64,000 nucleotides of DNA from Ensifer sp. (GCF_035999185.1 NZ_DASYHB010000121.1:10154-74153), one strand, 5' to 3'. Counted from the stretch's first letter, positions 5,407-23,236 are shown. Program-made: numbers and translations. The notes: generated from the letters alone by a model not told the origin.

Positions 5407-6885
5407 ATGACGACCAAACTCTCACTTGCCACCCTCGACCAGATCAGGGCCAAGGCCGGCGTGCCGCGCTACGACCGGTCGCATCTGACGGCTGGCATCG
5501 TGCATTTCGGCGTCGGCAATTTCCATCGGGCGCATCAGGCGGTCTACCTCGACGATCTCTTCAACGCCGGCCACGACCGGGACTGGGCGATCGTCGGCGC
5601 CGGGGTTCTGCCCTCGGATGCGACCATGCGCGCCAAACTCGCCGCGCAGGACTTCCTGACGACGGTCGTCGAGCAGGATAACAACCGCACCGGCGCCCAT
5701 ATCACCGGCGCGATGATCGACTATCTCGAGCCCGGCGACGTTGCTGCGATCGTCGGCCGGCTCGCCGATCCCGCGATCCGCATCGTATCGCTGACGATCA
5801 CCGAAGGCGGCTACTTCATCGACCCGGCCTCGGGCGTGTTCAACCCGACGCATCCGGCCATCGTTGCGGACGCCGCAAATCCGGGCGCGCCGAAGACGGT
5901 GTTCGGGCTGATTGTCGCCGGCCTGAAAGCCCGCCGCGACAAGAACATCCCGCCCTTCACCGTGATGTCCTGCGACAACATACCCGGCAATGGCGAGGTC
6001 ACCCATGCGGCGGTTTCCGGCCTTGCACGTCTTTCTGATCCTGCCTTTGCCGACTGGATCGACGCCAATGTCGCCTTTCCAAACGGCATGGTCGACCGGA
6101 TCACGCCGGCGACCGGCGCGCGCGAGATCGGCATTGTTGCCGACGATTACGGCATCGACGACGCCTGGCCGGTGTTCTGCGAGGAATTCAAGCAATGGGT
6201 GCTCGAAGACCATTTCCCGCTCGGCCGGCCGGCGCTGGAGAAGGTCGGCGTCCAGTTCGTACCCGACGTCGCGCCCTACGAGCACATGAAGATCCGCATC
6301 CTCAACGGCGGCCATGCGGCAATCGCTTACCCTGCCGCCTTGCTCGACATCCATTTCGTTCACGAGGCGATGGAGGAGCCGCTGATCCGAGCCTTCCTCG
6401 CCAAGCTCGAGCATGAAGAAATCATCCCCGTCATCCCGCCGGTGCCGAACACCAATCTCGGCGACTACTACAAGCTGATCGAGACGCGCTTCTCCAATCC
6501 GAAGATCGGCGACACCATTCCGCGGCTGGCGCAGGACGGCTCCAACCGCCAGCCGAAGTTCATCCTGCCGTCGACCGCGGATCGCCTCCAGCGCGGCGAA
6601 GATGTCGTCGGGCTTTCGCTGGTGTCGGCGCTCTGGTGCCGCTACTCTGCGGGCATCTCCGACAGTGGCAGGCCGATCGACTTCAACGACCAGAACGCCG
6701 ACCGGCTGAACAAGGCAGCGCTTGCTGCCAAGGACGATCCCATGGCTTTCCTGGCGCTTGGCGACATCTTCGGCGATGTCGCGCGCTCCGATCTCTTCTG
6801 CAGCCGTTTCGGGCACGCATTGAAAACCCTCTGGGAAAAGGGTACGCGGGCTACGCTCCAGCTCTATCTGGACGCGAAGCTTTAG
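5407..6885 (+). CDS. mtlK: Mannitol 2-dehydrogenase
   Basis: HFGVGNFHRAHQA, SCDN, MVDRITP, KIRILNGGH motifs. Confidence 0.9.
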   Translation: MTTKLSLATLDQIRAKAGVPRYDRSHLTAGIVHFGVGNFHRAHQAVYLDDLFNAGHDRDWAIVGAGVLPSDATMRAKLAAQDFLTTVVEQDNNRTGAHITGAMIDYLEPGDVAAIVGRLADPAIRIVSLTITEGGYFIDPASGVFNPTHPAIVADAANPGAPKTVFGLIVAGLKARRDKNIPPFTVMSCDNIPGNGEVTHAAVSGLARLSDPAFADWIDANVAFPNGMVDRITPATGAREIGIVADDYGIDDAWPVFCEEFKQWVLEDHFPLGRPALEKVGVQFVPDVAPYEHMKIRILNGGHAAIAYPAALLDIHFVHEAMEEPLIRAFLAKLEHEEIIPVIPPVPNTNLGDYYKLIETRFSNPKIGDTIPRLAQDGSNRQPKFILPSTADRLQRGEDVVGLSLVSALWCRYSAGISDSGRPIDFNDQNADRLNKAALAAKDDPMAFLALGDIFGDVARSDLFCSRFGHALKTLWEKGTRATLQLYLDAKL

Positions 6886-7629: not shown

Positions 7630-7711
7630 ACGGATGACAATCGATCACGCCTGTGATTCTGGGTAGAGCAGACCCAAATCATCGTGATTTTGGGGGCGGG
7701 GACTTTCTTTG

Positions 7712-9295
7712 ATGCGTGAATTCGTCGTTGCGGTCGATGTTGGTACCGGCAGTGCGCGCGCCGGCATCTTTGACCGGAAAGGCCTGCTGCTGGCGCGTGC
7801 CGACCTGCCGATCGCCATGAACCGGCCGGAAGAAAACCACGCCGAACATGATTCCGAAGATATCTGGCGGGCCGTGTGCGGTGCGGTCAAGGCGGCGCTG
7901 AACAAGGCCGGCATTGCGGCCGAAAAAGTCGCGGCCATCGGTTTCGATGCGACGTGCTCGCTGGTGGTACGCGATCGGGAGGGAAAACCGCTTTCGGTCA
8001 ACCGCAAGGGTGAGGCGCGTTGGGATACGATCGTCTGGCTCGACCATCGGGCACTTGCCGAGGCTGATTTCGTCACGTCGACTGGCCACCCGGTGCTCGA
8101 TTTCTCCGGCCGGGTGATGTCGCCGGAAATGGAAATGCCGAAGCTGATGTGGCTGAAGCGCAATCTGCCGGGGCAATGGCAGAAGGCCGGGTTCTTCTTC
8201 GATCTTGCCGACTACCTCTCCTGGCGGGCGACCGGCAGCGCCGCCCGCTCACGCTGCACGCTGACGGCGAAATGGAACTATCTGGCGCATGAGAAGCGCG
8301 GCTGGCAGTCGGACTATCTCGAAAAGATAGGGCTTGAAGATCTTGTCGAACGCGGCGGGCTGCCCGAAGAGACGCTACCGATTGGAGCCTCGGTCGGTCA
8401 CCTCAGCGCTACGGCCGCTGCCGAGCTCGGGCTGGATGAGGGCTGCCAGGTGGCGCCGGGCCTGATCGACGCCTATGCCGGGGCGCTTGGCGTCGTCGGC
8501 GGCTTCATCGGCAAGCCGGAAAAGCTTGAAAAGCAGTTGGCCCTGATCGCCGGCACCTCGAGCTGCATCGTCGCTTTTTCCAAGGACATGAAGCCGGGCT
8601 TTGGCATGTGGGGCCCCTATTACGAAGCCGTTCTTCCCGGCGCCTGGCTGATCGAGGGCGGGCAATCGGCAACGGGTGCGCTGCTTGACCATATCGTGCG
8701 CCTTCATGCCGGCGGCTTGGAGCCGACGGCGGACACCCATGGCCGGATCATCGCCCGCGTCCAGGAACTGCGCGCGGAGCAGGGAGTAGCCTTTGCCGAT
8801 CGCCTGCATGTGCTGCCCGATTTCCACGGCAACCGATCTCCGCTCGCCGACCCGCACGGGCTCGGCGTCATCAGCGGGCTGCCGCTTGATTCCTCCTTCG
8901 ACGCGCTCTGCCGGCTCTATTGGCGGACCTGCGTTGCGATCGCGCTCGGCATTCGCCACATCCTGGAGATGATGCGGGAAGTCGGTTATCAGCTCGATAC
9001 GTTGCACGTCACCGGCGGCCATGTGCGCAACGCGCTGCTGATGGAGCTCTACTGTGACGTGACCGGGTGCCGCGTTGTGGCGCCCGAGGCGCCGGACGCG
9101 GTGCTGCTCGGGACAGCGATGGCGGCGGCCGTTGCCGGCGGCATGCACGAAGACCTTGCGGCAGCGGGTGCGGCCATGGCGTCGGGCGGCCACGAGCGCT
9201 TGCCGAACTCGGCGGTCCGCGACGCCTATGATCGCGACTACCGCCGCTTCCTGGCGCTTTACCGCCACCGCGACGAACTCGACAACATCGAGTGA
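7712..9295 (+). CDS. FGGY-family carbohydrate kinase (ribulokinase-like)
   Basis: VDVGTGSARA, FDATCSLV, WLDHRA, GTSSC, PDFHGNRSP motifs. Confidence 0.88.
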   Translation: MREFVVAVDVGTGSARAGIFDRKGLLLARADLPIAMNRPEENHAEHDSEDIWRAVCGAVKAALNKAGIAAEKVAAIGFDATCSLVVRDREGKPLSVNRKGEARWDTIVWLDHRALAEADFVTSTGHPVLDFSGRVMSPEMEMPKLMWLKRNLPGQWQKAGFFFDLADYLSWRATGSAARSRCTLTAKWNYLAHEKRGWQSDYLEKIGLEDLVERGGLPEETLPIGASVGHLSATAAAELGLDEGCQVAPGLIDAYAGALGVVGGFIGKPEKLEKQLALIAGTSSCIVAFSKDMKPGFGMWGPYYEAVLPGAWLIEGGQSATGALLDHIVRLHAGGLEPTADTHGRIIARVQELRAEQGVAFADRLHVLPDFHGNRSPLADPHGLGVISGLPLDSSFDALCRLYWRTCVAIALGIRHILEMMREVGYQLDTLHVTGGHVRNALLMELYCDVTGCRVVAPEAPDAVLLGTAMAAAVAGGMHEDLAAAGAAMASGGHERLPNSAVRDAYDRDYRRFLALYRHRDELDNIE

Positions 9296-9326
9296 CGACG
9301 ACTGGCGAAAGGTTGGCGGGGCGGAT

Positions 9327-9351
9327 GGAACCTTTTTCTGCGCCGCGCATT
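9327..9351 (+). promoter_or_regulatory. Candidate sigma-EcfG (RpoE2) promoter
   Basis: GGAAC-N16-CATT, one mismatch to GGAAC-N16/17-CGTT; no substantial ORF downstream. Confidence 0.55.
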
Positions 9352-9359
9352 CTCCTAGC

Positions 9360-9488
9360 GACCGGACGGTGGCGCGCATCGCCCCCAATGCGGCGCCGGA
9401 GGCAGACCGCCGGCCTACAACTCACACTCCCCGAGTGAGTTGCACATACCAGCCAGTGCCTTCCCTCGGCACTGGCTGTTGTGTTTCT
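9360..9488 (+). ncRNA. Candidate trans-acting sRNA with C-rich anti-Shine-Dalgarno loops
   Basis: Stem CAACTCAC/GTGAGTTG with loop ACTCCCCGA (9418-9442); 10-bp stem AGCCAGTGCC/GGCACTGGCT with loop TTCCCTC (9451-9477) and a U/G-rich tail; ends are estimates. Confidence 0.55.
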
Positions 9489-9560
9489 GGAGTTCAAATG
9501 GGGAAACCAAAGCACCTGTCGCCTGGGGCATAACTGGAGAATAGTGCCGTGATGCACACA

Positions 9561-9592
9561 AAAATGCGCCGACGGACAGGCCATCGGCGCAT
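9561..9592 (-). terminator. Terminator of phyR
   Basis: AAAAATGCGCCGA...TCGGCGCAT; hairpin plus U-run when read on the minus strand. Confidence 0.6.
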
Positions 9593-9666
9593 GGAGAAGG
9601 ATGCTTCGTTTCAGCGGCGACAGGCCATTTCGCCGTCCTCGTGGAACGACGAAATGACCTGTCTGC

Positions 9667-10461
9667 TCAGGCCGCCGCCTTGGTTGATTCGTTGAAGAAC
9701 AGCGCCTGGCTGATCAGCGCCTTGACCATGTCGGGGTTGAACGGCTTGGTGACAAGGAACGTCGGCTCCGGTCGCTCGCCGGTCAAAAGCCGTTCCGGAA
9801 ACGCGGTGATGAAGATTACCGGAATGGCGCTCGTTTTCAGGATGTCGTTGACCGCGTCTATGCCCGAGCTGCCATCGGCAAGCTGGATGTCGGCGAGCAC
9901 CATGCTCGGGCGGGTTTTCTTGTAGAGCGCAATCGCTTCGTCGCGTGTGCGGGCGATGCCGGTAACGCGATGGCCAAGGCTTTCAACCATCTGCTCGATG
10001 TCGATGGCGATCAGCGGCTCGTCCTCGATGATCATGATGTCGGTTGCCACCTGCCTGGAGATCTCCTGCGAGGCGCGGTCGAGCAGGCCGCCGACCTTGT
10101 CGGTAGCAACATCGAGAACCTCGGCCGCTTCCTCGGGCCGGAAACCCTCGACGGAGACCAGCAGAAAGGCCTGACGGGCAAGCGGAGAGACCGTCGCAAG
10201 GTTGATCGATGCCCGCTGCTCCCAGGCAAAAGGCGAGATCGGTTCCGGTACCAGGACGGACGAAGAGCCGAAGAGCGACGTGAACAGCCGGAACAGGCCA
10301 ACGCGATCGTTGCTTGCCTCGGGGAAAATCGACACATCGGCGATCAGCGCTTCAAGAACGGCGGCCACATAGGCGTCGCCTGACGTCTGCGAGCCCGTCA
10401 GGGCGCGTGCGTAGCGTCGCAGGTACGGCAGGAGCGGTGCGATCCGCGTGGACAATGTCAT
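9667..10461 (-). CDS. phyR: PhyR anti-anti-sigma factor (sigma-like domain plus receiver)
   Basis: N-terminal LPYLRRYARALTG sigma-like domain, C-terminal receiver (IIEDE, LADIQLADG, TKP); divergent from nepR-ecfG. Confidence 0.95.
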   Translation of the reverse strand: MTLSTRIAPLLPYLRRYARALTGSQTSGDAYVAAVLEALIADVSIFPEASNDRVGLFRLFTSLFGSSSVLVPEPISPFAWEQRASINLATVSPLARQAFLLVSVEGFRPEEAAEVLDVATDKVGGLLDRASQEISRQVATDIMIIEDEPLIAIDIEQMVESLGHRVTGIARTRDEAIALYKKTRPSMVLADIQLADGSSGIDAVNDILKTSAIPVIFITAFPERLLTGERPEPTFLVTKPFNPDMVKALISQALFFNESTKAAA

Positions 10462-10504
10462 AGGGTGAACTCCCTCGAAATTCATTTTACGGTGACGTTC
10501 CGAG

Positions 10505-10529
10505 AACGCTGGCCGGAAAAAAAGGTTCC
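10505..10529 (-). promoter_or_regulatory. sigma-EcfG promoter of phyR
   Basis: Minus strand GGAAC-N16-CGTT, exact consensus. Confidence 0.85.
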
Positions 10530-10534
10530 GCGAG

Positions 10535-10560
10535 GGAACATTTCAATTTTCAAAGGCGTT
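10535..10560 (+). promoter_or_regulatory. sigma-EcfG promoter of nepR-ecfG
   Basis: GGAAC-N17-CGTT, exact consensus. Confidence 0.85.
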
Positions 10561-10597
10561 ATGGCGGCTATGGACACTCGAAGGCGACATTTTGAAA

Positions 10598-10792
10598 ATG
10601 AAGTATAAATCAGGTGCAGGGCGGGCGACCGGCACGACCTTATGGACAGAAGACCCAAATGCGCAGATCGCAGCAAAGCTGAAGGCGCTTTATCAGTCCG
10701 TACAGGAAGAGGCGATTCCCTCGCGTTTTCTCGATCTTCTGGAAAAACTCGACGCGGCCGAGCAGCAATCGGCGCTGCAGGGCAGGGAGTGA
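10598..10792 (+). CDS. nepR: NepR anti-sigma factor
   Basis: QIAAKLKALYQSVQEEAIPSRFLDLLEKL NepR core, directly upstream of the ECF sigma gene. Confidence 0.92.
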   Translation: MKYKSGAGRATGTTLWTEDPNAQIAAKLKALYQSVQEEAIPSRFLDLLEKLDAAEQQSALQGRE

Positions 10793-10800
10793 GTACCGGA

Positions 10801-11355
10801 ATGACATCCGAAAAGAATGATTTCAAGCGAGAGATGCTGTCGGCTCTGCCGAGCCTGCGTGCCTTCGCCATGTCTTTGATCGGTCGCCACGACCGCGCCG
10901 ACGATCTGGTGCAGGACACGATCATGAAGGCCTGGGCAAAGCAGGATCATTTCGAGATGGGCACAAACATGAAAGCCTGGCTCTTCACGATCCTGCGCAA
11001 CGAGCTTTACAGCCAGATGCGCAAGCGCGGGCGCGAGGTTCAAGACAGCGACGGACATTTCACCGAGTCGCTCGCGCACCATCCGGAACAATACGGTTCG
11101 CTCGACCTGCAGGATTTTCGCAAGGCGCTCGAGACGTTGCCGCCCGATCAGCGCGAAGCGATCATTCTCGTCGGCGCCTCGGGCTTTTCCTATGAGGAAG
11201 CGGCAACGATCTGCGGCTGTGCTCTCGGCACGATCAAGAGCCGCGTCAATCGTGCGCGCCAGCGCTTGCAGGATATTCTCCAGGTGAAGGGCGAAAACGA
11301 CTACGGACCGGATGAGACCTCCGCTCCAATTACCTCGCGCGCCTTCGTTTCCTGA
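10801..11355 (+). CDS. rpoE2: ECF sigma factor EcfG/RpoE2
   Basis: Region 2 (ADDLVQDT, AWLFTILRN) and region 4 (YEEAA...GTIKSRVNRAR). Confidence 0.93.
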   Translation: MTSEKNDFKREMLSALPSLRAFAMSLIGRHDRADDLVQDTIMKAWAKQDHFEMGTNMKAWLFTILRNELYSQMRKRGREVQDSDGHFTESLAHHPEQYGSLDLQDFRKALETLPPDQREAIILVGASGFSYEEAATICGCALGTIKSRVNRARQRLQDILQVKGENDYGPDETSAPITSRAFVS

Positions 11356-22894: not shown

Positions 22895-23236
22895 ATGAAC
22901 CCCGCCATGCTCTACAGCGTTCTGGTCGCGGCGATCGTTTTCGAAGTGCTCGGCACCTCGGCGATGCAGGCGGCGCAGCATTTTTCGCGGCTGGGGCCGA
23001 CAGTCCTGATGATGGTCTGCTACGCGATCGCCTTCTTCTTCCTGTCCTACACGCTGCGCTTCATCCCGGTCGGGATTGCCTATGCGGTGTGGAGCGGCCT
23101 CGGCATCGTGCTGATTTCGCTCGTCGGCTATTTTGCCTTCGGCCAAAAACTCGATCTGGCGGCGATCCTGGGGCTGGGCCTGATCATCGCCGGCGTGGTT
23201 GTGCTTAACCTTTTTTCAAAATCGACGTTCCACTGA
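22895..23236 (+). CDS. SMR (EmrE/QacE) multidrug efflux protein
   Basis: Conserved TM1 Glu (FEVLGT), IPVGIAYAVWSGLG, four TMs. Confidence 0.9.
   Translation: MNPAMLYSVLVAAIVFEVLGTSAMQAAQHFSRLGPTVLMMVCYAIAFFFLSYTLRFIPVGIAYAVWSGLGIVLISLVGYFAFGQKLDLAAILGLGLIIAGVVVLNLFSKSTFH

Follow-up and report, generated by a model that had tools for sequence, protein, structure and literature searches.

A conserved small RNA gene with an EcfG-type promoter beside phyR in Ensifer, the probable orthologue of SmelC601 and ReC64

What is encoded in the 371-nt gap that separates the gene of an FGGY-family sugar kinase from phyR on an Ensifer-type chromosome, and does it belong to the general stress response whose regulatory genes lie beside it? 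The window, i.e., the whole stretch of 64,000 nucleotides that was analysed, finds its nearest named loci, among the matches listed, in Ensifer sp. 4252, Sinorhizobium sp. A49 and Ensifer adhaerens. Its plus strand carries, as open reading frames, a mannitol dehydrogenase gene (5407–6885) and the SMc01503-like kinase gene (7709–9295), with a probable HAD-type phosphatase gene between the two, whereas phyR, which encodes an rsiB1-like anti-anti-sigma response regulator, occupies an open reading frame of the minus strand (9667–10485; the start call is crude and the true start is likely the ATG at 10463). Beyond phyR, nepR (10592–10792), ecfG/rpoE2 (about 10801–11355) and, after the latter, a histidine kinase gene are again found on the plus strand. 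This arrangement agrees with what we take to be the gene order of the SMc01501–SMc01507 region of Sinorhizobium meliloti, the species in which SMc01504 is rsiB1, SMc01505 is rsiA1 and an SMc01504–SMc01503 intergenic region exists.

An initial annotation had proposed that a sigma-EcfG-dependent, GsrN-like sRNA is encoded just past the 3′ end of phyR. The position is correct, the phyR stop codon being at 9667 on the minus strand, and the gap does contain an sRNA gene, single-copy and independently promoted, that is oriented like the kinase gene and converges with phyR.

The first element of this gene is its promoter (9327–9351, plus strand), which was read from the sequence and matched to the EcfG/RpoE2 motif. 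The GGAAC-N16-CATT reading of the initial annotation is exact, with GGAAC at 9327–9331, a 16-nt spacer and CATT at 9348–9351; in terms of promoter elements, a −35 GGAACCT (9327–9333) is followed by a 13-nt spacer and by a −10 GCATTC (9347–9352), whose GCATT departs from the consensus CGTT. By itself the motif is not significant, since 3 matches occur in 64 kb against 1.85 expected, and its weight derives from the context. Nearby, GGAAC-N16/17-SRTT is matched exactly at just two further places, the phyR promoter (10505–10529, minus strand, GGAACCTTTTTTTCCGGCCAGCGTT) and the divergent nepR-ecfG promoter (10535–10560, plus strand, GGAACATTTCAATTTTCAAAGGCGTT); these stand back to back with 5 nt between them and act as built-in positive controls. 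The sRNA box and the phyR promoter have an extended GGAACCTTTT in common. Furthermore, in all 19 loci of other genera that were read (16/16 family members and 3/3 added members) a GGAAC box is found at equal upstream distance, in the form GGAAC-N16/17-(C/T)GTT or CATT, ending ~8 nt before the first position of the covariance model described below, and the layout is identical to that of the S. meliloti RNA SMc_sRNA_298 (GGAACCT-N13-GCATTC here, GGAACCT-N13-GCATTA there). As side observations, GGAACCTTTTT is common to the phyR box and the sRNA promoter, and another exact match, GGAAC-N16-GGTT (GGAACGTCGATTTTGAAAAAAGGTT), is found at 23207–23231 on the minus strand.

The transcript predicted downstream of this promoter (9360–9488, plus strand, about 120–128 nt) is delimited by the covariance model and by the S. 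meliloti transcription start site (TSS); its 5′ end is expected at G9360/A9361, the first position of model R1 (see below) aligning to A9361, and its 3′ end within the U-rich tail 9479–9488. A 138-nt stretch folds at −64.3 kcal/mol, which is better than 200/200 dinucleotide shuffles (z = −3.97). The RNAalifold consensus defines a 5′ domain (9362–9413) closed by a long-range stem, P1, in which CCGG 9362–9365 pairs with CCGG 9410–9413 and compensatory changes affect 4/4 pairs; within it, P2 (9367–9379 with 9388–9409) displays such changes in 8/10 pairs and the helix next to P1 in 3/3, all counted over 53 distinct sequences. Apical on P2 is C-rich loop 1, CGCCCCCA (9380–9387), the most conserved loop, which is also written GCCCCCAA and whose CCCCCA(AUG) is the near-invariant single-stranded motif of the family. 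Between the 3′ arms of P2 and P1 the alignments place a junction, GGAGGCAGA (9398–9406), that is G-rich in Ensifer/Sinorhizobium and CCCCAAA-like in Rhizobium/Pararhizobium; in Shinella-type members it consists of a GAGGCCCUC mini-palindrome. In the clades where it is G-rich, the C-loops contain U (CCCUC), a co-occurrence that suggests a possible self-pairing within the RNA.

The 5′ domain is followed by hairpin 2 (9418–9442), found both in the fold and in the consensus, with stem CAACTCAC/GTGAGTTG and compensatory changes in 8/8 stem pairs across the family. It exposes C-rich loop 2, ACTCCCCGA (9426–9434). The last element is an intrinsic terminator (9450–9488), recognized by the terminator scan, consisting of an 11-bp stem (9450–9460/9468–9478), C-rich loop 3 TTCCCTC (9461–9467), which is of the UCCCUC or UCCCCC type in the family, and the tail TTGTGTTTCT; 99.8% of the cells of its alignment are paired and 4 pairs have compensatory changes. 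The two C-rich-loop hairpins of the initial annotation, those at 9418–9442 and 9450–9478, are thus both present, yet the C-rich loops number three, as loop 1 and the 5′ domain with its long-range closing stem had escaped that reading. The conservation of the loops, on which the proposal had been made to depend, is borne out by the CCCCCA of loop 1, which is nearly invariant, and by the CCCC(U)C core of loop 2, which is kept.

How far does this structure extend beyond the present genome? BLAST with 9300–9500 returned a single copy in each of 22/22 same-genus genomes, the alignments running from the GGAAC box to the terminator tail with diverging flanks. Inside the genus, column identity over the transcribed part amounts to 89%, and the 17 distinct sequences contain no compensatory changes. 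A covariance model built on these 17 sequences (R1) gave full-length matches in 13 of the 135 sampled genera of the Rhizobiaceae (GTDB), and a second one, built on 19 diverse members (R2), detected full-length copies in 16/135 once weak false matches had been removed. The present genome is matched once, as expected of a single-copy gene, and the reading as a repeat element was rejected for the same reason. Among the matches listed, the named carriers are Ensifer, Sinorhizobium, Rhizobium, Shinella, Pararhizobium and Ferranicluibacter. On the other side of the family boundary, no R2 match at E ≤ 0.001 was obtained in 150 genomes representing 150 other alphaproteobacterial families. The gene order typical of the family is kinase → sRNA → phyR, the last on the other strand; phyR is inside the 1.5-kb flank in 17/19 loci by tblastn (14/16 in the first set), and in many loci it is separated from the RNA by a gene of ~1.2 kb that reads like an HWE-type histidine kinase and is probably tcrY, in accord with the tcrY of Rhizobium etli.

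Covariation across the Rhizobiaceae, which the initial annotation had suggested as a check, is extensive. Over 53 distinct sequences standard pairs fill 92.9% of the cells, as opposed to 28–40% after the 3′ partners have been shifted by 1–3 columns, and compensatory changes are present in 27/36 pairs, none of 500 shuffles reaching any of these measures; in a 15-sequence set the corresponding values are 96.4% and 20/36. The alignments were fitted to the model and are therefore biased towards its structure (they were used because a cross-genus MAFFT alignment misaligned the 5′ domain and yielded 15 pairs only), but the effect is large and compensatory changes are visible in the raw sequences, where ACCGG...CCGG in some members corresponds to GTTCCTGA...TCAGGAAC in others, so that the consensus structure can be considered secure. 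Both sequence and structure are under selection in at least 16 genera, and for the structure this selection is purifying. As to its classification, the initial annotation had not been able to place the RNA in Rfam, and indeed no Rfam 15 family matches the region: a scan at E ≤ 10 yielded only spurious microRNA-type matches on the terminator, the top one being mir-221, whose 21.4 bits fall short of the gathering score, 46.6.

Some of the sequences collected on the way are unrelated to the family. A terminator-pattern scan of named genomes picked up chance matches (Firmicutes, Vibrio and others) along with true members, and R2 split the two cleanly. Weak R2 matches (E > 1e-4) were rejected; they have neither EcfG box nor phyR and mostly fall in conserved coding sequence or on generic terminators. 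Six of them (L049, L051 and L053–L056) lie in a conserved coding sequence whose DNA reads ...TTCACCATCTTCCCGCC...GGCGGCTATCTCAGCCATGCCTTCTCCTGGCACTGGCTGTT and whose CAGCCATGCC/GGCACTGGCTG segment resembles the stem of the sRNA terminator. Yet another weak match devoid of an EcfG box (L046:1501–1622, plus strand, genome G156) is a different three-hairpin RNA, with CCTCCTCCC in all its loops, that looks like an alpha-r14/NfeR1-type sRNA outside the present family.

To which known RNA does this family correspond? SmelC601, also named SMc_sRNA_298 and SMc06778, of S. meliloti 1021/2011 (PMC3616915; PMC3927594; PMC7143759) originates in the SMc01504–SMc01503 intergenic region of strain 1021 from a TSS at 2625439 (minus strand), behind the RpoE2 promoter GGAACCT-TTTTTCGCCTCGT-GCATTA, and its probe set is induced by a log2 fold change of 2.30 upon rpoE2 overexpression (PMC3616915 Table S20). 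Table 1 of a 2020 review (PMC7143759) lists it at 2625313–2625439, i.e., 127 nt, with an RpoE2 promoter and with expression in nodule zones II, IZ and III, and the available part of that review describes no function for it. The exact 34-nt published promoter is present in two Sinorhizobium-genus genomes, where it is immediately followed by an R1 match of 116.6 bits (E 4e-27); in this S. meliloti-type locus the first position of R1 is 1 nt past the mapped TSS, and the published 127 nt, counted along this locus, end on the fourth U past the terminator stem. The Ensifer RNA shares with SmelC601 the place between the kinase gene and phyR, the convergence with phyR, the promoter layout and the 127-nt length class, and the distance from TSS to phyR stop is 306 nt (predicted TSS) here and 295 nt in S. 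meliloti. The differences amount to a few stem substitutions and to loop 2, which is ACUCCCCGA here and AUCCCCCCUCA in S. meliloti; furthermore, RpoE2 dependence and expression were measured in S. meliloti only. A family model of SmelC601 had already been built by Reinkensmeier 2011 (PMC3927594), who described mainly a Sinorhizobium/Ensifer RNA with extensive microsynteny.

The second relative is ReC64 of R. etli CFN42 (Vercruysse 2010, PMC2881028; Jans 2013, PMC3892343), an RNA induced by salt shock for which 5′ RACE located the TSS downstream of an EcfG1 motif and whose gusA fusion is abolished in an ecfG1 mutant and activated in E. coli by EcfG1 or EcfG2 (PMC3892343). The target of its Northern probe, ATCGACCCAACATGCGCGCCCCCAACCCACCAT (Vercruysse 2010 supplement, PMC2881028), is found with 1–2 substitutions within the model matches L036, L115 (Rhizobium mongolense) and L134, the first of which scores 32 bits with R1 and 73.6 bits with R2. 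ReC64 and the Ensifer RNA have in common the EcfG-type promoter, the place beside phyR(-tcrY), the C-rich loops, hairpin 2 and the terminator; on the other hand, the 5′ domain of ReC64 is more diverged, its junction is CCCCCAAC instead of GGAGGCAGA, its upstream neighbour is not the kinase gene and the RNA is separated from phyR by tcrY. Since an R. etli relative is absent from the SmelC601 list of Reinkensmeier 2011 (PMC3927594), the link between SmelC601 and ReC64 relies on Fig. 9 of Tien 2018 and on the present models. In Northern analysis ReC64 runs as a band of 88 nt, accompanied by an unexplained larger one, and the mature form may therefore be shorter than the predicted 120–128 nt; the difference between 88 nt and the ~125 nt of the full-length RNA hints at processing, GsrN being reportedly cut endonucleolytically into stable halves. 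By virtue of the homology with SMc_sRNA_298/SmelC601 and ReC64, the proposal that the gap encodes a sigma-EcfG-dependent, GsrN-like sRNA gains support, although as a prediction from sequence homology.

The likeness to GsrN deserves a closer definition. According to Tien 2018 (PMC5869019), GsrN of Caulobacter crescentus is a post-transcriptional regulator whose most conserved region is a 5′ C-rich loop; GsrN-type RNAs are usually encoded beside ecfG-nepR-phyR, and, from the ReC64 data, putative homologues with a C-rich loop in their 5′ part were proposed beside the stress locus of R. etli, S. meliloti, A. radiobacter and B. abortus. From the criteria stated there, we infer that the S. meliloti prediction is the SmelC601 locus. 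The RNA described here resembles GsrN in having a promoter of the general-stress-sigma (sigT/EcfG) type and an exposed C-rich loop in its 5′ part (loop 1, apical on P2), but differs from it in having three C-rich loops, and C. crescentus gsrN is located away from the stress locus, where it is still functional. That paper confines the BLASTn matches of GsrN to the Caulobacteraceae (PMC5869019), and no homology to GsrN was detected here with R2 in the 150 families, a sample that may or may not include the Caulobacteraceae. The RNA is thus GsrN-like by design, membership of the GsrN family being unproven. Three hairpins and repeated C-rich unpaired motifs are also reminiscent of alpha-r14/NfeR1 and AbcR1/2, rhizobial trans-sRNAs with anti-Shine-Dalgarno loops to which the 2020 review (PMC7143759) ascribes three hairpins and unpaired motifs, rich in C/U, that recur along the molecule. 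Unlike the present RNA, with its EcfG promoter and its CCCCCA/CUCCCC motifs, these have RpoD-type promoters and an CCUCCUCCC or CU-rich motif, and their families gave no Rfam match in the region even at E ≤ 10.

Taken together, these data make it very probable that 9360–9488 (plus strand) is the Ensifer orthologue of SmelC601/ReC64, with its own stress-sigma promoter and with C-rich loops that would pair in trans, as a post-transcriptional arm of the stress response. To judge from the orthologues, transcription would start 8–9 nt past the −10 element and would depend on the general-stress sigma factor, the RNA accumulating in stationary phase, after salt shock and in nodules. It may then act in trans through base pairing, its exposed C-rich loops (GCCCCCAAUG, CUCCCC, UCCCUC) binding G-rich stretches of mRNAs. 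These could be Shine-Dalgarno regions, for which loops 2 and 3 offer CUCC/CCUC, or else G-tracts in 5′ leaders. Binding would change the translation or the stability of the mRNA, with either sign possible, and the PhyR-NepR-EcfG cascade would gain a post-transcriptional arm, as with GsrN in Caulobacter. The target prediction that had been suggested along with the initial proposal did not favour it: when the three loop regions were compared by RNAduplex with the 5249 translation-initiation regions that a crude gene call gave for this genome, the energy distributions were not separated from those of reversed-seed controls. Pairing to ribosome-binding sites is accordingly something that we only infer, and no targets are proposed. 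A rather improbable extension of the scheme would have the general stress response of rhizobia, both in free-living cells and in nodules, exert its post-transcriptional effects mainly through this family, with several redundant C-rich seeds; in Ensifer/Sinorhizobium, where GGAGG has taken the place of the C-rich motif of the junction, the latter could pair with the CUCC/CCUC loops of the same molecule, which would mask them and render their accessibility switchable.

The same outcome of this naive scan, no target signal above control, is what one would see if the RNA were mainly a sponge or decoy, whose repeated C-rich loops bind a protein or another RNA and not the ribosome-binding sites of mRNAs. 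The presence of three to four such loops in one short RNA would suit this role, as would the GGAGG junction of Ensifer/Sinorhizobium, which could pair with the RNA's own loops. The scan is too crude, however, for excluding mRNA targets, nothing at this locus points to a protein that binds C-rich loops, and in GsrN, the best-studied analogue, it is an mRNA leader that the C-rich loop reportedly pairs with, namely a G-tract in that of katG, raising KatG, as Tien 2018 is said to have found. We consider a sponge function unlikely.

Could the hairpins instead be merely the 3′ UTR and terminator of the kinase operon, and the short RNA a by-product of read-through or processing? The kinase gene is located upstream in the same orientation in most genera (17/19 loci by tblastn, 14/16 plus 3/3 added), and from the kinase stop (9295) to 9450 the terminator scan found no other terminator on the plus strand, whence the sRNA terminator, being the sole one after this stop, probably also ends the kinase operon transcript. 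Serving both transcripts, it makes the two readings not mutually exclusive. As an account of the whole RNA, the UTR is nevertheless very unlikely: 32 nt past the kinase stop there is a conserved EcfG box, whose distance to the conserved 5′ end does not vary; a primary TSS was mapped there in S. meliloti (PMC3616915); the R. etli-type loci L035 and L036 keep the RNA without a kinase gene upstream, and the genes flanking ReC64 are on the other strand; finally, covariation is strongest in the 5′ domain, a part dispensable for termination.

Besides a trans-acting sRNA with its own promoter, the convergence of this gene with phyR, whose stop lies only 179 nt from the sRNA end, evokes an action in cis, in which convergent transcription or read-through would generate antisense RNA to the 3′ end of phyR and tune the cascade. 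The place beside phyR or tcrY is conserved, and the U tail (TTGTGTTTCT) is interrupted, so that termination may leak. Yet the sRNA terminator (9450–9488) does not overlap that of phyR (9564–9592, minus strand, from the consensus terminator scan), the ~1.2-kb gene intervenes between RNA and phyR in many genera, and gsrN of C. crescentus functions at a distance from the stress locus; action in cis is highly improbable. With regard to the 3′ side of phyR, a long inverted repeat (9619–9663; GACAGGTCATTTCGTCGTTC ... GGACGGCGAAATGGCCTGTC on the minus strand) is located directly past the stop codon and precedes the canonical terminator, phyR thus having two consecutive 3′ hairpins; in the Rfam scan this repeat surfaced only as a spurious MIR918 match. 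The same intergenic region of S. meliloti is reported to contain SmelC599, on the sRNA strand and starting ~30 nt past the sRNA terminator, and SmelC600 on the opposite strand (PMC3616915), the counterpart of this region in the window being 9489–9666.

A small protein can be practically dismissed. The only internal ATG, at 9388, starts a frame of 16 codons (MRRRRQTAGLQLTLPE) whose end is at 9438, but this ATG lies within the P2 stem, the very next codon in the S. meliloti-type sequence is TGA, and L027 has ATT in its place; the substitutions track base pairing and not codons, and the frame, not being conserved, was rejected.

The reading as an orthologue of SmelC601/ReC64 implies that the RNA is already known, as SmelC601/SMc_sRNA_298 in S. 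meliloti and as ReC64 in R. etli; its promoter and sigma-factor dependence are in print for these two species, and the analogy with GsrN dates from 2018. What is added here is that covariance models unite SmelC601 and ReC64 as a single structured family whose RNAs carry three to four C-rich loops, that this family, for which there is no Rfam entry, is present in at least 16 genera of the Rhizobiaceae, and that it was undetected outside them in the 150 other alphaproteobacterial families sampled. In the literature examined no target or phenotype was found for it, and the family represents a good candidate for Rfam submission and for target-finding rather than a discovery. The sRNA probably belongs to the PhyR-NepR-EcfG general stress response, a system that matters for the survival of rhizobia and for their symbiosis.
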